A stretch of DNA of 64,000 bases from a virus. Taxonomy: Duplodnaviria > Caudoviricetes. The position numbers and the translations under genes are program-made. The notes beneath the pieces were generated by a model. The model was not told the DNA's origin and ran no database searches. It was given only the letters and a program-made list of their open reading frames with translations. This document shows, piece by piece, positions 970 to 11,889 of the stretch; the stretch's first letter is position 1; each line of letters starts with the position of its first letter. The stretch lies in IMG/VR virus record IMGVR_UViG_3300033463_000005, positions 32,001-96,000 of that record; one strand, written 5' to 3'.

Positions 970-1340
970 ATGAAAATTGAAAAAACGACAACCGGTGTGA
1001 TTATCCGTGAGCCAAATGATATGGTAAAACGGAAATGTTTGGCTTATTTTTCATTAGACAAACCTCTTCGTGAATTTTTTATCTACACAGGTAATGATCC
1101 GGATAACCATGGATGGTTTGGTGGTGAACGTGATGTTATTTACATCACTTCAGGATTCTTATCGTTATCTGATCCGGACATTCATAAGTTGAAAGTGGAT
1201 TCCGTAAAACCAATTCCAACTCCAAAAAAGATCGAGTTGAAAATGAACCGAGAACCCCGTTCCGATTTACAACGTGATTGCATTCAAAAAGTAACAACAT
1301 CGAATACAAATAAAATCACAATGGAACTAAAGCCTGGTGT
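970..1340 (+). CDS. SF2 (UvsW-like) helicase, exon 1
   Basis: Q-motif-like PRSDLQRDCI, then MELKPG-V, the first half of Walker A. It joins exon 2 in frame to give LKPGVGKT. Confidence 0.85.
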
Positions 1341-1667
1341 TGAACTTTACCGGCACCCGCGTACGGTGACGTGCGTGAAAAATACACCCCATTGAATTGC
1401 TGGGACGATAACTCTAATGCTCACAATGCTACAACGTAACGATGAAATATGCGTAAGCGTGAATGCGACGAAAGTAGAAAGAAATTGTGAGATGATGCAT
1501 GGTTAAATCCTAAACATCACAAGAATGAGCAATCAGCAGCGAAGCCTTGAATAGAGGAACGTTCGTCGGTCATTCTGTGTTTAACAGATTAGGAGTTTCA
1601 TTAGCTCCGAAGCGGTGGGCATCTCATATATATGAGATGATGATATGACCAAGCGGGTTGAACGCCG
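1341..1667 (+). mobile_element. Group I self-splicing intron, 327 nt, no homing endonuclease ORF
   Basis: P element GAATTGCTGGGA, Q element AATCAGCAG, P7 TCGGTCA/TGACCA. P1: exon GGTGT pairs with guide GCACC, with U-G at the splice site. P10: TTTACCG pairs with exon 2 TGGTAAA. Terminal G at 1667. Removal restores both frame and Walker A. Confidence 0.92.
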
Positions 1668-2742
1668 TGGTAAAACGTTCATTGCATTATATTCCGCATC
1701 AAAGTTGGGATTGAAACCATTGATTGTTGCACCAACATCATTATTGAAAAACCAATGGATTGAGAATATCGTTGAACTTGGTATTGATAAGAATGATATT
1801 GCAACAAAGATATGGGATGCACCCGATAAGAAAGTTTGTGTTGTAACAATTTCCTCATTGGAATTGGCAATCCGTGATGATTGGAATCGGTTATTGAAAA
1901 CATTGGATAATTCCGGATTTGGTATCAAAGTTATCGATGAAGCGCATCTTCATTTGAAAGGTATGCTGAAATTTGATGCTTTGTGTAATATCAAACACAA
2001 CTGGTATCTGTCCGCAACACTTGGAAGATCTGATGCAAAAGAGGATCGTATTTTAAATCGTGCTTTAAAAGATGCGGAACGATTCGTTGGAAATTCATCG
2101 TATGAAGAATATCAAAATGAATATGTCCAAGTATATTTCCAAGATATCTACTATTTCCCGTCATCCAGTTTATGTAAAAAATATTTCAAATATGGATCAA
2201 AGGGATTAATCAGAGCTTCTTATTATAAGATGCTTTTGAATTATCGCGGTGGAGATGCATTCATACGAAATCTGATTACGTTGATGAAACGCACAAAAGA
2301 ACTGTTGAATTATGATGCAAAGATTCTGTTGCTGGTTCCGTTGATTGACATTTTGAAACGGCTGTATGATGTTATGAAACGTGATCCATATTTCAGCAGA
2401 TACAAATTTGCAATCATTGAGGGTCATCTGACATTGTCGGAAAGACGTGAAGCAATGGAATCGGATTTCATTCTGTCAACATCTCTATCGATGGGAACTG
2501 GTGTCGATGTTTCAAATCTTGGTGCTGTGATCAATTTTGACCAATATGCATCACCGATTATTACGGAGCAGATCTTTGGTCGACTTAGAGATCGAGGAAA
2601 GGAAACATACTACATCGACGTTTGTGATCATGTCCGGCAAGCACGCGTGATTGCAAACTGGGGTGAACGCAGAAGAATCTTGATTCCATATTTCCCGGGT
2701 GCAAAACAAACGATCAAAAAGTTTTCACGCATTATATGCTAA
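1668..2742 (+). CDS. SF2 (UvsW-like) helicase, exon 2; spliced product 481 aa
   Basis: GKT, motif Ia IVAPTSLL, DEAH, SAT, motif V TGVDV, motif VI QIFGRLR. Confidence 0.88.
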
Positions 2743-2966: not shown

Positions 2967-2994
2967 GTATCCTATTATTCTGACTTTTCATATA

Positions 2995-3003
2995 TATATT
3001 ATT
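2995..3003 (+). promoter_or_regulatory. Early-type phage promoter TATATTAT
   Basis: The motif recurs upstream of non-structural genes and resembles the phiKZ early consensus TATATTAC. Confidence 0.6.
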
Positions 3004-3077
3004 AATATGAAGAGAGAATAAATTACTCTCTTTACAAAATTTTTACTGGTCTCTATGAGACCGGAAAGGAGAAAACA

Positions 3078-3413
3078 ATGTTTGTAGTAATATTAAAAGT
3101 TAGGCGGATGACCACAGAAAATGATGAGGTTGTCCTTGACGAAAGATCAGAGAGAGTAATCTCTCTGAGAGCCGATTTGGCTTCCGCAATTGTGGATGCC
3201 AAAAAAGCATCCGACAGTATATGGCTGTCCACATGCCTACTTGAGTATGAAACGACCATGGAATGCGAGCTTGGTGGGCGGTTGAACAACACATGGTGTT
3301 CGCCCGGCGAAAATCCCACAGAATTCGGTGGATATATAGACGATGGCGTCAACCACTTCAATTGGACGACCATTGTTGAGGAAGGTGACTTTTGGGAAGC
3401 AGAAGAATCTTGA
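3078..3413 (+). CDS. Hypothetical acidic early protein
   Basis: RBS GAAAGGAG, downstream of an early-type promoter. Confidence 0.7.
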   Translation: MFVVILKVRRMTTENDEVVLDERSERVISLRADLASAIVDAKKASDSIWLSTCLLEYETTMECELGGRLNNTWCSPGENPTEFGGYIDDGVNHFNWTTIVEEGDFWEAEES

Positions 3414-3470
3414 TTCCATTCTTCTGCTTCCCAGGAAATAACGATCAATCGGAACCGGATTGAAAGGGGT

Positions 3471-3857
3471 ATGTATATGAAACGATATATTTGCAATGTA
3501 GATATTGGGCATCACATTTATACCGAGCTCGGAGTTCTTTGGATATGTGGAGAAAATGGACTCTTCGTCACCTATGACGAAAATATTACGATATCGTGGC
3601 GGTATGATAATGGCCGTGCAACCGGTCCACGGTTGGAAACAGATGCCATTAGAAGAGCAGCCGAGAGAGTCTCGGCTGCGGCAAATGCTGGTGAGCTCAC
3701 AGAGAAGCACATTGCGGATCTCGTATCCGCAATGATCACGGGCAAATATGATATGACGGAGGATGAGAGATATATCCTCCGGGCAAAGCGCGGTTATTAC
3801 CGTGCCAGAACTGGTGAACTTGTAAAGGTTCACCAGAGGAAGAGAAGGGGCGCTTAA
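3471..3857 (+). CDS. Hypothetical early protein with basic C-terminus
   Basis: RBS GAAAGGGG; ends in a terminator hairpin; contains the 22-nt match to candidate sRNA 2. Confidence 0.65.
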   Translation: MYMKRYICNVDIGHHIYTELGVLWICGENGLFVTYDENITISWRYDNGRATGPRLETDAIRRAAERVSAAANAGELTEKHIADLVSAMITGKYDMTEDERYILRAKRGYYRARTGELVKVHQRKRRGA

Positions 3858-6448: not shown

Positions 6449-8662
6449 TCAGGAGTATTGTTTTAATTGTTGCAGAATTGGTAAGAGTTGCGTGAATCGC
6501 TCATAGATGGATTCAATATAATCACGTGAGCATCCTTCAAACAGATTGGTTTCGTCGATCATTTTATAGAATTCTATCATGTCTACGAATGGATGTGATT
6601 CTTGATAATACATGAAATAGGAATGCATGATCAAGAAGAATCGAAGATCCGGAATGGATACATCGATTTTCACATTATTGATGTAAACAGGATACGTTTT
6701 ATCAACCGCGCCAATTGTTGAAAATCCAAAGATGTCTGGACGTAATTTGATACCCATAAATTTGAGCGTATTCTTCAGGTTATCCAATTGTGGGAATTGA
6801 TTGTACTTCGACAGATCAACACCCATATCATTCAGCTGCGACATCAGAATGGAATTCTCTTCATATTGTGATCCACGGAAATATGTTGTGATTTTTGAGA
6901 AATCCCGAACACCAACTCCAGCGAGGAAATTGTATGTGTCATATTCACCAAATTTCACGGGGTTATCGGAATAATGACGGAGATTCTTATTGAACTGATG
7001 TGTCTTAACAGGTTGATCATAAAGCGTTGTACGACCAGTCGAAACTGCGGCCAATGATTTAGAAGGCTCCTGCTTTAACACCCAAGTATACTGGAATCCG
7101 ACTGGATATTTATCATCCAATTTGACCCAACGTTTATGAAGCTTTGTGAATACATTATAATGCTTCATAATATCCGGGTATTTATCATATGCTTCCAGAA
7201 TTGCGTCACGAATGCAAACTTCATTAAACGGTTTGATTTGAATAATGTTTCCATTTGTCAGAATGTCATTGATGACAGCATTCGGATTCTCGGCATATAA
7301 CCGGCGAATTTCATCCGCTTGTTGTGGATTGAAGATTCCGACGAAGTCAGAAGTAATCTTCACAATGTCATCATTGGAAGCACCGTCATGATGCATTTTT
7401 GCAATATGTTGATTCATGCGATCCATCATGAACGTCATGGAACCTTCGTATGTTGCGAATGCAATGATACGGTTTGGAACCGCCAACGCATTTGCTAACA
7501 TATGAATCGGTCTACCATCATCCGTTCTCGGCATATCTTCCGTCGGAATGATTTTGGAAATAACGGATTTGTTTCCGTAACGTCCAACGACTTTCTGACC
7601 AACGGCAATCTTCATGGGTTGTAACATCGTGAATTTGATAATGGTATCCGCAATGTATTCCTTTGTAACCCATGTTGAATGATTCAAATACTTTTCTGCT
7701 TGATGGTAGATATCCAGCAGCGAAGTATCATCTTGAAATTTATCATCAAGCAATGCGGAAATATATGCATAGATGTCAGAATACCATTGACGAATTTGTG
7801 TCAGATACATGTTGAATTGCTCGTTCTCAACATCAACATTTGAAAAGATATCAATATCTACAACAGTTCCATGTGAGAAGTAATTCGTGTCATTGATATG
7901 TGGGATGGATGCTTCTGCAAATGTTGATACATATGAATTCTCACGAATGGAGCATAAGATGTTATCCTGCACCTCTTCACCAATATTCGGAAATGGTTTG
8001 TATTCTCCGTCTCTGCCATAACGGTTCAACAGGAATGATTTCTTTGACACATTTACTGTGACAATGTCAACCATATCATATTCCAATGCTTTTGCGGCAT
8101 CCGAAGAAATGATCAACGAATCTTCTGTTAATTGTGGAAGAACCGCATATGCCATTCGAAGATTCACACCAGCACAGTAATTGTCATTTACATATGAAGA
8201 TGATTGTGCAATTGCAGCGCCCTTCTTCAACACATCTCCTTCACGAATCTGTTGAATGTAATTCTTCATTCTGAATCCATATTTCTCAACAAGATTCACG
8301 GCCGGTTTATAAATCTTACAAATGTATTTTCCCGTCGCTAAATTCTGAAAGATGTATGCAATTGGAGAAAATGGTGCATTTGGGAATTTTACAAACTTTT
8401 TCATCAATTTGTAATCGTCAGTTGCACGGACATTCCATGATGAACGTTTTCCAAATTCATTTTCTGCACCGGAGAAAATCATAGGGAATTCCGGATTCCG
8501 CAGAACCAATCTCTGTGACACATGCTTCACCATCATTCCACCACGTGTTGTAGAGATCTTTTCAGGAAATCCCATTGCAGACATTCCAGTTAGTGACAAC
8601 GGATCGACATCAGCACATCTCCGATCGATATCCGATGCATTATTCATAACTTGTTTCGGCAT
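6449..8662 (-). CDS. Multisubunit RNA polymerase beta subunit, C-terminal half (probably non-virion RNAP)
   Basis: GVNLRMAY, TEDSLIIS, GQKVVGRYGNKSVISKI (compare GDK..GRHGNKG), MPRTDDGRP, PVKFGEYD. Early-type TATATGAT promoter at 8749-8756. Confidence 0.9.
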   Translation of the reverse strand: MPKQVMNNASDIDRRCADVDPLSLTGMSAMGFPEKISTTRGGMMVKHVSQRLVLRNPEFPMIFSGAENEFGKRSSWNVRATDDYKLMKKFVKFPNAPFSPIAYIFQNLATGKYICKIYKPAVNLVEKYGFRMKNYIQQIREGDVLKKGAAIAQSSSYVNDNYCAGVNLRMAYAVLPQLTEDSLIISSDAAKALEYDMVDIVTVNVSKKSFLLNRYGRDGEYKPFPNIGEEVQDNILCSIRENSYVSTFAEASIPHINDTNYFSHGTVVDIDIFSNVDVENEQFNMYLTQIRQWYSDIYAYISALLDDKFQDDTSLLDIYHQAEKYLNHSTWVTKEYIADTIIKFTMLQPMKIAVGQKVVGRYGNKSVISKIIPTEDMPRTDDGRPIHMLANALAVPNRIIAFATYEGSMTFMMDRMNQHIAKMHHDGASNDDIVKITSDFVGIFNPQQADEIRRLYAENPNAVINDILTNGNIIQIKPFNEVCIRDAILEAYDKYPDIMKHYNVFTKLHKRWVKLDDKYPVGFQYTWVLKQEPSKSLAAVSTGRTTLYDQPVKTHQFNKNLRHYSDNPVKFGEYDTYNFLAGVGVRDFSKITTYFRGSQYEENSILMSQLNDMGVDLSKYNQFPQLDNLKNTLKFMGIKLRPDIFGFSTIGAVDKTYPVYINNVKIDVSIPDLRFFLIMHSYFMYYQESHPFVDMIEFYKMIDETNLFEGCSRDYIESIYERFTQLLPILQQLKQYS

Positions 8663-8776
8663 AATAGATACTCCCTTCCGTAACATAAATTGTATTTGTT
8701 AGTTACAATGCTTATGATATTAAACACAATCATTGTACATACACGGAAATCATATACATGCCAAAATAAAATTAAT

Positions 8777-8804
8777 ATATGTGGGGGCATATGCCCCCAC
8801 ATAT
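8777..8804. terminator. Hairpin terminator
   Basis: ATATGTGGGGGC-ATAT-GCCCCCACATAT. Confidence 0.75.
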
Positions 8805-8811
8805 ATTACCA

Positions 8812-9666
8812 TCATAGAACCGATGCGACGTTTCGAATAAATGTAACTGCTTCAGATTCTGTATGAATCTTCATATCAGCACATGCATATGATGCATTCA
8901 GATAAACACCCAGAACAATGAAGATATCGGATTTGATTGTGATATTGGTGAACAAGCGTTTGATCAGATCATCCAAATCAAACTTCGGAACGAATTCATC
9001 TTCCGTCGTCATATAGAATTTTGTGATCATCTGATAATCAGGTCCGAAGAAAAGTAGATCATCATACTTGTCCATTTTCTCCAGATCAATCTTGCTCCGC
9101 ATCAGATAGTTATTCAAATCTTCATAGGAAACTTCTCTTGCAACATATTCAATGACAGGAGTCATATTAGAGAAGATTTGAATCCGAATGCGTTCAATCT
9201 GATCAATATACTTGAATAGACAATAATAAATGAAAATGTCATCGATGACATCGTCCATTGTAACTTTATTGTCATTCAATGCGACAATAACCGGATGTGT
9301 TTCTCCGAGAGTATGACGCAGTTCTTCCGGCGTGACTCTGGATTTGATTCTACCGTATTCCGGAACGGTTTGATTTGTGACAAATAGCTTTGTCTTTTTC
9401 GGTTGACGTTCCGTGGATTCCGGTTCTTCTACTGGTTTATCATCATCGGTACATGGAATGAATGCATCCAATGGTAATGTCTCTAGTTCAATATCCCATG
9501 TGAATGCTTTGTAATACTTCGTATAATCATCACGTGTTAGAATTGTATGACGTCCATTCAATAATCGAATGTTTTGGAAAAATACATCACACGAAGAAAT
9601 CAACATCTTGTGTCGTTCCAGACGTTTCTCGAATTCTAATACAGATGCTTTTGGAATCATAATCAT
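8812..9666 (-). CDS. Hypothetical protein
   Basis: 284-aa ORF with RBS; overlaps the upstream stop codon. Confidence 0.75.
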   Translation of the reverse strand: MIMIPKASVLEFEKRLERHKMLISSCDVFFQNIRLLNGRHTILTRDDYTKYYKAFTWDIELETLPLDAFIPCTDDDKPVEEPESTERQPKKTKLFVTNQTVPEYGRIKSRVTPEELRHTLGETHPVIVALNDNKVTMDDVIDDIFIYYCLFKYIDQIERIRIQIFSNMTPVIEYVAREVSYEDLNNYLMRSKIDLEKMDKYDDLLFFGPDYQMITKFYMTTEDEFVPKFDLDDLIKRLFTNITIKSDIFIVLGVYLNASYACADMKIHTESEAVTFIRNVASVL

Positions 9667-9854
9667 GATTGTGATCTTCCTTCCATTGTGTTTGATTGCT
9701 GCCTTGCATTATTTTTATTCTCGTAATATTCATTTCGAATTGGTTGATAATTCTCGACAACATACGAAATTCCATTACGTTGTATGAAAACATGAACGAA
9801 GTCGTTCAACCGAATTTGTTGAACGACTTCGAATGTCGTGATCGTGGCCACCAT
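9663..9854 (-). CDS. Small hypothetical protein
   Basis: RBS GAAAGGA; ATGA overlap with the next gene. Confidence 0.55.
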   Translation of the reverse strand: MVATITTFEVVQQIRLNDFVHVFIQRNGISYVVENYQPIRNEYYENKNNARQQSNTMEGRSQS

Positions 9855-9892
9855 ATGATTCAGATCCTTTCATAATGAATATTTTTGTTTGA

Positions 9893-10120
9893 TTATGAAA
9901 GTTCATCGACCAGATCATCAATTGCCGTATCATGAAATACCTGACGTGCATGATTAATCGAATCTGTATGCGATGAATTCATCGCCTGCATATTCTGTTT
10001 CGCTTGATGTTCTTTCTGTATCTTTCGAATCTCTCGGAGACGGTTTACGAATTTTCGTGGCATTCGTAAGAGTGTCTCTATTGGCAAACATCGATTGAAT
10101 AAGTCACCCAATTCAATCAA
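9893..10120 (-). CDS. Small partner of the baseplate/tail assembly protein (possible frameshift extension)
   Basis: LPIETLLRMPRK resembles the small ORFs that follow T4 gp26/gp51-like genes; lies in the -1 frame of the upstream gene. Confidence 0.55.
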   Translation of the reverse strand: MIELGDLFNRCLPIETLLRMPRKFVNRLREIRKIQKEHQAKQNMQAMNSSHTDSINHARQVFHDTAIDDLVDELS

Positions 10121-11889
10121 TTCGACTCCATCCCGATCAAGTTTATTTCGGTAGACGACAGCCTCCGAGCAAGTTGGAAAATCAAGTCTTCTCCAATGTC
10201 AGGAATAATGATACGGTCGTCATGGTGACCACAATTATCACATGTGAAGTTCTCGATATAGAACTGCATGGGTGATGCGGTCTTCTTTGCAATTGTCTGA
10301 ATCAGATTCAACAGGATTGCCTGATCCTTCATATCCAATGATGTTGTGATAATCTTCTCGATATCATCCCAATCATCAAACCGATATTCAACCTCTTCAC
10401 CCTTGTTATTCTTCTTGATGATAGAGATTGCGGTGATGAACAGAGCATGTGTCAACAGATAACCATGCTCCGGATTCTCCTCGGTATCATCGGTTCTGCC
10501 ATCCGGATAGAATCGTTTCTCCAAAGCATTCATCAGAGGATAACGACGATTCAAGAAATCGTATGCAGAAGGACGATCATCGATTTCAACAATGAATCCG
10601 GTGTTCGGAAGCTTGTACCGTTTCAATGTGGAATTAATTTTGTTATAATGGTCAATTGCGGGTTGACCATAGCCAACAGTATGTGTTGTTTCATACTGGT
10701 ATTCTTTCATCAATTCATCATCAACATGAATGATGGTGCGAGGACGATACTTCAAGCTATGGACCTTTTTACATTTCGGATTCGAGCAACGAATCGGAAC
10801 CGTCTCCTCATCATCTGCAGCACCAATCAGGATACCCCACATCAACAGCTCACGATCACCATACTTGGTTTTCTTCAAGAAATCTTCGAAATCTTTGAAC
10901 TCACCGATGGAAACGTTCTTGATATGATCGTAAATAATAGACCACTGTTTCTTATCCTGGTCAACAGAATTACCGGACATCGGTGTAGAACCAAGCTGAA
11001 TGAATTCATAATAGTTGACCGGTTTCAATGTGCAACGATATGCAGACAACGGAAGTGTCAGCGGCACATCACCGAGTTCTGCAACATACGGTTCAATGAT
11101 ACCAGCCTGCTGTGAATTATGAATCACCTTTGATGACATCAATTCTTGTTGTGTCACTTCTTTCACGATGATGTTGATCTGATTGGTTGTTGTCATTGCC
11201 TGTACAACATCCTGGTCCACATTCACCGTGACAGGAGAACCTTTCTCAACACTGATGTTGATCGTTGGCGGTTCTTGGCTTGGCATCTGATTGTCTGATG
11301 CAACCGTTTCTGTTGTTTCTACTGCATCCTGTGTTTCCTGCTTTGGTTCTTCCGGCTGTACTTCCGCAGGAACCCAGTTCCTGATGATCAGCTGTTCAAA
11401 TTCCGGTGTAATCGTCGTGCCAGAAACATGATAGATGGAAACCAATTCGCCCATGATGTGACGCTGCAACTCCGGATCGTCATCGGTTGAAACCGGGATG
11501 CCACCAACAGGAAGATTGTTCTTCTTCACAACTTCATCAATCATCTGACCAACAATATCAAGTGTCGTTGCTTGGAATGTAATAGCTTGATTTTGATATT
11601 CTTTGTCAATTGAAATCGGGGGCATAGCAACCTTCTTGGCTTCTTCTTGCTCTCGTTCAATACGAGACTGTGCTGCACGCAAAGCGCGTTCTTCAGCATC
11701 TGCTTCCTCTTCACGTGCAATTTCTGATGCAAGATCATTTACGCCATATTCATCATCAGCATCAGAAGTTTGATTTGCCATTTCTGATGTTGCTTCAACT
11801 GCATCAGAAATGGGTTCGGAACTTGGTTCTGTTTTTGACACACGAGACATCAGTTCCTCGAGCGGATCTATGAATTGTGTATTATCCAT
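10117..11889 (-). CDS. Baseplate hub/tail assembly protein, T4 gp26/gp51-like, with acidic N-terminal extension
   Basis: LTLPLS, DRELLMWGI, Cys pairs CSNPKC and CDNCGH near the C-terminus. Confidence 0.55.
   Translation of the reverse strand: MDNTQFIDPLEELMSRVSKTEPSSEPISDAVEATSEMANQTSDADDEYGVNDLASEIAREEEADAEERALRAAQSRIEREQEEAKKVAMPPISIDKEYQNQAITFQATTLDIVGQMIDEVVKKNNLPVGGIPVSTDDDPELQRHIMGELVSIYHVSGTTITPEFEQLIIRNWVPAEVQPEEPKQETQDAVETTETVASDNQMPSQEPPTINISVEKGSPVTVNVDQDVVQAMTTTNQINIIVKEVTQQELMSSKVIHNSQQAGIIEPYVAELGDVPLTLPLSAYRCTLKPVNYYEFIQLGSTPMSGNSVDQDKKQWSIIYDHIKNVSIGEFKDFEDFLKKTKYGDRELLMWGILIGAADDEETVPIRCSNPKCKKVHSLKYRPRTIIHVDDELMKEYQYETTHTVGYGQPAIDHYNKINSTLKRYKLPNTGFIVEIDDRPSAYDFLNRRYPLMNALEKRFYPDGRTDDTEENPEHGYLLTHALFITAISIIKKNNKGEEVEYRFDDWDDIEKIITTSLDMKDQAILLNLIQTIAKKTASPMQFYIENFTCDNCGHHDDRIIIPDIGEDLIFQLARRLSSTEINLIGMESN

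Follow-up and report, generated by a model that had tools for sequence, protein, structure and literature searches.

Two open reading frames on the plus strand of a phage genome, lying in the same frame and each encoding part of a helicase, raise the question of whether the phage makes two proteins or a single enzyme from an interrupted gene. They lie in the window, by which we mean the whole 64,000-nucleotide stretch of DNA analysed here, taken from an uncultured phage record of 258,509 bp that is judged 96% complete. The upstream frame (970-1395, plus strand, 141 aa) passes from helicase sequence into the intervening stretch and then stops, ending ...MELKPGVELYRHPRTVTCVKNTPH, and the downstream frame (1645-2742, plus strand, 365 aa) begins MTKRVERRGKTFIALY. 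A preliminary description, made from the sequence letters, had proposed that a group I intron interrupts the Walker A motif of the helicase at this place. Our analysis indicates that positions 1341-1667 are very probably a group I intron that carries no gene and has the architecture of subgroup IA, situated in the Walker A loop and proposed to be self-splicing. In several public assemblies, gene callers present the helicase as two ORFs (141 and 365 aa) with no relation to each other; the actual product would be one enzyme of 481 aa. The gene is divided as follows:

970..1340, plus strand: helicase exon 1, residues 1-123 and the GT of codon Val124
1341..1667, plus strand: predicted group I intron, 327 nt, endonuclease ORF absent; assigned by its RF00028 match, the family HMM and covariation
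1668..2742, plus strand: helicase exon 2, from the third base of Val124 and GKT through residue 481 to the stop codon

Removal of the 327 nucleotides in silico joins CCT GGT GT to T GGT AAA ACG and yields a 481-aa ORF, TMELKPGVGKTFIALYSA. The interruption splits the codon of Val124 (GT|T), inside the Walker A loop KPGV|GKT of an SF2 helicase. An intron-free homologue of the same length, P0001 (481 aa), is 90% identical to exon 1 through V124 and 92% identical to exon 2 from G125 (residues 125-481), with no gap, and across the junction it reads ...ITMELKPGVGKTFIALYSA. Because P0001 aligns gaplessly across both exons, removal of 1341-1667 restores the helicase gene exactly. This alignment to an intron-less homologue was one of the checks put forward in the preliminary description, and it bears out both the junctions given there (1340/1668) and the 481-aa product. 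Most helicase homologues found in a public protein search are likewise single chains of 481-483 aa.

Exon 2 matches the Pfam families ResIII (E 2e-8), Helicase_C (E 2e-6) and DEAD, as well as PHROG 16, 'DNA helicase'; with the Walker A sequence KPGVGKT, the ATP-binding domain and the C-terminal helicase domain, the spliced product has the features of an SF2 helicase. Its description as UvsW-like holds only loosely. The general SF2 assignment stands, but a profile of the helicase family compared with solved structures matches XPB best (E 4e-7) and UvsW (2oca) less well (E 1.3e-4) and in the C-terminal domain only, and the score against the NCBIfam XPB model is 36 bits, for a cut-off of 610.

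The same intron occupies the same site in eight further phage contigs, which gives nine copies with that of the window. Their lengths are 327, 322, 327, 330, 323, 334, 296, 291 and 307 nt, and in five of the nine the two exons lie in different frames. All nine splice in silico to intact ORFs of 481-483 aa that contain KPGVGKTF.

Searched with Rfam at its curated thresholds, the window contains no match. A local search, on the other hand, aligns the full Intron_gpI model (RF00028, positions 1-253) to 1353-1653 at 21.4 bits (E 0.0035), below the curated cut-off of 50; recognizable P, Q, R and S elements are present in the match, which also has an insertion at the position that P7.1 and P7.2 occupy in introns of subgroup IA. 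For L153, a sister copy with the same insertion site, the score is 60.6 bits (E 3e-13), so the lineage passes the cut-off, whereas the window copy does not. The low score of the window copy is due largely to swapped base pairs in P7. The Rfam search suggested in the preliminary description has thus returned the full group I model, at a score under the threshold for this particular copy. An HMM of the family, built from 89 sequences, recognizes the window intron with an E value of 8e-51 (nhmmer), and the identification as a group I intron is upheld by this profile, by the full-model match and by a covarying core. No second copy of the lineage was found in the phage's own genome by blastn, Rfam or nhmmer. 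The single-sequence minimum-free-energy structure pairs the two ends of the intron with one another and does not reproduce the group I fold; its energy is modestly better than that of shuffled sequences (z = -2.24).

The helices below were taken from the Rfam alignment and from the sequence itself, all on the plus strand:

1336..1357, plus strand: P1, exon GGUGU 1336-1340 with guide GCACC 1353-1357, U1340.G1353 at the 5' splice site
1341-1342 with 1351-1352, plus strand: possible extension of P1, read from the sequence
1346..1352, plus strand: P10 guide UUUACCG, pairing with exon 2 UGGUAAA 1668-1674
1358..1377, plus strand: P2 hairpin, 8 bp, GUGA loop; 100% paired and five pairs double-changed in the nine copies
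1388..1394, plus strand: P3, 5' strand, pairing with 1613-1619
1398-1403 with 1533-1538, plus strand: P4, enclosing P5 and a large P5 extension (1398..1538)
1412-1414 with 1527-1529, plus strand: P5, inside P4
1420-1427 with 1484-1491, plus strand: P5a, in the P5 extension
1429-1432 with 1474-1477, plus strand: P5b, in the P5 extension
1493-1497 with 1515-1519, and 1501-1502 with 1509-1510, plus strand: P5c, in the P5 extension
1539-1540 with 1561-1562, plus strand: P6, in 1539..1562
1545-1548 with 1554-1557, plus strand: P6a, GAAUA loop, in 1539..1562
1568..1573, plus strand: P7, 5' strand GGUCAU, pairing with AUGACC 1645-1650 and forming a pseudoknot with P3
1575-1578 with 1584-1587, plus strand: P7.1, between P7 and the P3 3' strand
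1592-1595 with 1605-1608, plus strand: P7.2, between P7 and the P3 3' strand
1613..1619, plus strand: P3, 3' strand, partner of 1388-1394
1621..1638, plus strand: P8 hairpin, palindrome AUCUCAU AUAU AUGAGAU, matching P8 of the Rfam model
1645..1650, plus strand: P7, 3' strand AUGACC, partner of 1568-1573
1653..1667, plus strand: reduced 3' tail, a 3-bp hairpin and then the terminal G1667, read from the sequence

The hairpins P7.1 and P7.2 are the mark of subgroup IA in the classification of Michel and Westhof. Here they (1575-1587 and 1592-1608) form an insertion relative to the Rfam consensus, and in the nine copies they are 88-90% paired, with some double changes. A classical P9 with a GNRA loop, which supplies the docking domain characteristic of subgroup IA, is absent from the window copy; P9 usually helps to select the 3' splice site. 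In its place stands the 3-bp tail hairpin, for which there are two possible registers, 1653-1655 with 1663-1665 or 1654-1656 with 1665-1667. In L153 and L154 this hairpin is absent too, and only four bases and the terminal G follow P7, while in the alignment of the lineage P7 is followed, in many of the wider relatives, by a hairpin that resembles P9 and is capped by a GAAA loop.

We counted base pairs on structure-blind MAFFT alignments of two sets, the nine helicase copies and 89 diverse relatives, the latter consisting of 88 lineage members remaining after clustering (<88% identity) together with the window copy. Among the 89 relatives, 85.4% of cells are paired, compared with 34-43% when the partners are slid; there are 1046 double-change cells (186-314 slid), and the covariation score of 0.454 (at most 0.11 slid) is not reached by any of 500 shuffles. 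The nine copies give 94% paired cells against 37-44%, 77 double-change cells against 2-13 and a score of 0.315 against at most 0.074, again reached by none of 500 shuffles, and 31 pairs are double-changed, including pairs of P7 and P10. P3, P4, P5, P5a, P5c, P6, P6a and P7 are each supported in the 89 relatives. There, P4 is 97% paired, P5 98.5% and P5a 85%, and the three P5c pairs that are still aligned are 100% paired; P3 is 84% paired, with six of its seven pairs double-changed, and in the nine copies it is 100% paired. P6 and P6a are also 100% paired in the nine copies, with double changes in three of the four P6a pairs. P7 is 100% paired in the same copies; its pair G1568-C1650, the presumed guanosine-binding pair, is invariant in all nine, and the three pairs beside it change from GACUA/UAGUC (L153) through GGCUA/UAGCC (L144) to GGUCA/UGACC (window), every change being compensated. 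P8 and everything 3' of P7 are poorly aligned by MAFFT in the 89-sequence set. Because the program displaces the AT-rich P8 hairpin, only 53-61% of its cells count as paired, a figure that is therefore uninformative.

The elements that set the splice sites agree with those named in the preliminary description, namely a P1 of GGTGT with GCACC including a U-G pair, a P10 of TTTACCG with TGGTAAA, and a terminal G. The five pairs of P1 are present and invariant in all nine copies, so covariation neither supports nor contradicts this helix. In P10, 98% of the cells are paired across the nine copies; where the exon codons are GGA AAG instead of GGT AAA, both partners of two pairs have changed, and a further two pairs change by wobble. 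The guide and exon are UUUACCG with YGGUAAA in copies of the window type and CUUUCUG with CGGAAAG in L153 and L154. Exon 2 of the window begins with T, that of every other copy with C; Val is encoded in either case (GTT/GTC), and the P10 pair is G.U with the former and G-C with the latter. The terminal G is G1667, and in each of the nine copies a final G stands at the point that brings the exons back into frame. A 5' site one base later, after U1341, is rejected, as the frame then shifts into a stop codon. Likewise, the direct repeat GTTGAAC (1338-1344 and 1654-1660) was considered as an alternative junction; deletion between its copies gives PGVERRGKT, which no homologue shows.

From these elements we propose the following route, in which the chemistry is taken over from the family, whereas the junctions, the fold, its conservation and the family membership come from computation. 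The helicase would be transcribed as a single pre-mRNA, within which the intron would fold into the P3-P8 and P4-P6 core, and the guide (1346-1357) would pair with the last five bases of exon 1 (P1) and the first seven of exon 2 (P10). Free guanosine would attack after U1340, the terminal G1667 would next occupy the guanosine site in P7, and the exons would then be joined as CCU GGU GU|U GGU AAA, encoding PGVGK. The predicted sequence of the ligated exons is CCUGGUGU|UGGUAAAACG, beginning UGGUAAA on the exon-2 side. As only the spliced mRNA would encode a working P-loop, production of the helicase would depend on splicing.

A scan of metagenomes for the junction sequence gave a sole match, L212, which is an intron-free DNA allele and so is not evidence of splicing. 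This locus (JAEEGL013133295.1, positions 4399-4424 of L212) belongs to another helicase lineage and is 90% identical to L134, and its flanks (AAACCTGGTGTCGGTAAAACGTTCAT) are typical of intron-bearing alleles. It could be a vacant homing site, the product of precise intron loss, or a coincidence; since just two synonymous differences in the flanks separate it from L134, it argues only weakly for precise loss.

Several features of the window copy, namely its low Rfam score, the lack of a classical P9 and the non-consensus P7, are those of a ribozyme that has decayed, in which case splicing would have been lost and the helicase gene would be broken. We regard this as highly improbable, given that no change in P7 is left uncompensated and that the G-C pair presumed to bind guanosine never varies. 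Furthermore, the nine copies keep their exons open and conserved despite near saturation of the four-fold degenerate sites (0.32-0.52 identity, except for the near-identical pair L153/L154, at 0.86), and in the five closest copies the intron itself is 86-93% identical, with its changes concentrated in compensated pairs. Compensated changes and conserved open exons together indicate that purifying selection maintains the RNA as well as the gene.

The same comparisons bear on a helicase made naturally in two pieces, with the 141-aa and 365-aa ORFs translated separately and the RNA between them serving another role. An ATG is indeed present at 1645, and ORF callers report the 365-aa protein, MTKRVERRGKT..., in several genomes. 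The break, however, would divide the P-loop itself, separating PGV from GKT, and most homologues are single proteins of 481-483 aa. The ATG and the next eight codons lie in the conserved P7 3' strand and the 3' tail, and are constant because the RNA is constant; in L153 and L154 this stretch is missing altogether. The guide, moreover, is complementary to each of the two exons, with covariation between its P10 portion and the 3' exon, so that we give a two-piece helicase slightly less credence even than a decayed ribozyme. The length of 327 nt, a multiple of three that leaves both window exons in frame 1, and the inteins that related phages carry two codons downstream might suggest an in-frame insert, such as an intein, that is either excised from the protein or simply read through. 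Yet a stop codon at 1393-1395 follows 18 codons into the intron, the copies of 322, 323, 334, 296 and 307 nt shift the frame, and Pfam gives no match for the read-through ORF. Such an insert is already refuted by the stop codon together with the frame shifts, and we assign it practically no probability. A group I intron that would still splice is the reading that we retain.

To place the intron among its hosts, we compared 41 distinct related helicase loci, of which nine carry the intron, 11 carry an in-frame intein after K126, 20 are empty and one is cut off. Where the intron is present, the alleles all keep GGTGT|YGG (CCY GGT GT|Y GGN AAR); intron-free alleles vary freely at synonymous sites near the junction, and some encode Thr (ACN) instead of Val. 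Within about 20 nt of the site, the identity of the exon flanks is 0.89 among intron-plus alleles and 0.70 among intron-free ones. The excess in exon identity among the former is confined to these 20 nt or so on either side, and no long co-conversion tracts were seen. On the evidence of the alignments, this constancy fits a constraint imposed by P1 and P10 better than it fits long co-conversion tracts. Identity between introns falls from 0.86-0.93 to about 0.82 and about 0.70 as identity between the helicase proteins falls from 0.70-0.81 to about 0.64 and about 0.56. The intron-plus P0002 and the intron-free P0003 have 100% identical exon-2 proteins, which implies that intron gain or loss between them was recent. 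Overall, the pattern suggests that the intron has mostly been inherited vertically under purifying selection and has at times been lost or transferred. The nine copies form a natural series, useful as test material for ribozyme studies, in which all else is constant while the P9 region ranges from a 3-bp hairpin to nothing and the P7 pairs run from GACUA through GGCUA to GGUCA.

The 11 intein loci (L139, L140, L145, L146, L149-L152, L155, L156 and L158) have their insert seven bases downstream of the intron site. These inteins begin [C/A/E]EPYS, with Cys as first residue in L146 and Ala or Glu in the others, end THN followed by TF (Thr +1), and contain a block rich in Cys (CRCIMVDN) close to their C-terminus. 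They look like class 3 inteins, which in mycobacteriophages and Mycobacterium are known from the P-loops of DnaB-type helicases; here it is the same Walker A loop as that of the intron that they occupy. They differ from the intron in acting at the protein level and in frame, with lengths of 223-359 aa, and some contain a LAGLIDADG endonuclease (PF14528 in P0107), of which the window has none; the 223-aa form is presumably without an endonuclease. Intron and intein occur together in none of the 41 loci, for which the chance would be about 4% if the loci were independent, which they are not. One P-loop that is held by an intron, by inteins or by nothing in related phages offers a compact system for studying competition between selfish elements.

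The preliminary description had stated that the intron carries no endonuclease, and we find the same: there is no endonuclease ORF within it, the longest wholly internal ORF being 33 aa (1547-1648), and all nine helicase copies measure just 291-334 nt. Recognizable nucleases of the homing type number only two in the whole genome, both of them HNH_3 genes far from the helicase (at 9.3 kb and 245.5 kb), and there are no matches to HNH, GIY-YIG or LAGLIDADG_3. These data fit an intron that is either immobile or mobilized in trans; one without an endonuclease would spread or be lost only when it recombines with other phages or is assisted in trans. We think it unlikely, if conceivable, that the endonuclease-free intron persists as a shield of the helicase P-loop against other invaders. 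On that reading, the intron splits the DNA target of a LAGLIDADG intein endonuclease, or of another P-loop homing enzyme, and intron-bearing alleles would therefore be immune.

The lineage to which the intron belongs is defined by two motifs in the P5 extension, ACGAAAGUAGAAA and GGUUAAAUCCUAA, which co-occur in at least 110 IMG/VR stretches. Among cultured phages, blastn finds 70-77% identity over 100-200 nt at several sites: an intron of Clostridium phage D-1873 that bears the annotation 'Group I catalytic intron', the gap in the split portal gene of Bacillus phage LY2, and the gaps behind a truncated tail-tube CDS in a Kayvirus and a Silviavirus. The family HMM recognizes all of these, with an E value of about 1e-41 for the tail-tube introns, as well as the 3' half of Twort nrdE intron 2 (E 3e-12), an intron that carries an HNH gene. 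The Twort-like tail-tube (orf142/tmpA) introns and Twort nrdE intron 2 are credited to Landthaler and Shub (1999) and Landthaler et al. (2002), which PMC5526547 and PMC5618024 cite. The Twort introns are reported to be self-splicing. With the introns of Twort-like staphylococcal phages (Herelleviridae), the window intron shares sequence homology, the same core with P7.1 and P7.2, and a position within the conserved portion of an essential gene, in phages that infect Firmicutes. It differs from them in its gene and site (the P-loop of an SF2 helicase), in having a P9 of only a 3-bp hairpin and in its three swapped P7 pairs, and, unlike Twort nrdE intron 2, it has no HNH gene.

The td, nrdB and nrdD (sunY) introns of phage T4 are the textbook phage introns of subgroup IA2. 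They resemble the window intron in lying in conserved motifs of nucleic-acid enzymes and in having P7.1 and P7.2, and those of the nrdB type can be effectively without an endonuclease; however, no sequence match to T4 was detected, they keep a P9 domain, and the P5 extension motifs of the window intron are specific to its lineage. The sequence comparisons place 1341-1667 as a real and conserved, but ordinary, member of a widespread family of phage group I introns, and nothing in this finding changes the known workings of such introns.

A helicase gene as host is less unusual than the preliminary description had supposed in calling it uncommon: helicase genes with introns have been published for the staphylococcal phages Romulus, Remus, K and G1 (PMC5526547), and AR9-like jumbo phages are rich in introns. 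In the latter (Bacillus AR9 and Staphylococcus MarsHill, Madawaska and Machias), many genes are disrupted by introns or inteins, those listed being the genes for RNA polymerase subunits, prohead protease, DNA polymerase, large terminase and gyrase (bioRxiv 10.1101/2020.12.14.422802). The window phage is of the same kind, and the cultured relatives of its helicase are those of AR9, PBS1, phiR1-37 and the Staphylococcus jumbo phages. This helicase is not, however, among the disrupted genes listed for AR9-like phages, and the window genome has one intron of the lineage. Contigs related to the window carry a gene for a multisubunit RNA polymerase nearby. When exon 2 was compared with cultured jumbo phages by tblastn, matches covered only residues 70-320 (AR9 and PBS1 group) or 1-129 (Staphylococcus S6 and Madawaska group); the helicase genes of these groups may be interrupted at other positions.

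Some further observations concern the neighbourhood of these introns. Some 1.5 kb downstream of its annotated group I intron, Clostridium phage D-1873 has a RAGATH-18 RNA (RF03064, 61.7 bits; L001, 4268-4337) beside a transposase gene. Within the window phage's own genome, outside the window, 106992-107183 is a weak Rfam candidate for Intron_gpI (15.2 bits, E 0.026). A DnaB-like helicase gene 22 kb upstream of the window (L206, positions 8451-11576 of the same genome) also appears to be split. Its first ORF (2-499 of L206) ends ...SGHQLNRMAAQAV..., and an ORF at 1682-1927 resembles the continuation; between them lie a 258-aa HNH_3 ORF (646-1422) and about 260 nt with a weak Intron_gpI signal (14.9 bits in one search and none in another). 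This locus is a candidate for a second, endonuclease-bearing intron.

Downstream of the helicase, positions 2980-3846 of the window are missing in the closest relatives, L123 and L124, in which the 3' end of the terminase gene directly adjoins the small-RNA region that follows the helicase; their absence there indicates an inserted cassette of about 870 bp. Its ORFs, at 3078-3413 (111 aa) and 3471-3857 (128 aa), have no match in Pfam or PHROG. A direct repeat of 26 nt (2669-2694 and 3399-3424, 92% identity, 730 nt apart) copies the 3' coding end of the helicase into the cassette, where, immediately 3' of the ORF at 3078-3413, the repeat contributes one arm to a perfect hairpin of 16 bp (3393-3408 with 3418-3433). 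This repeat may be a recombination scar or a borrowed terminator.
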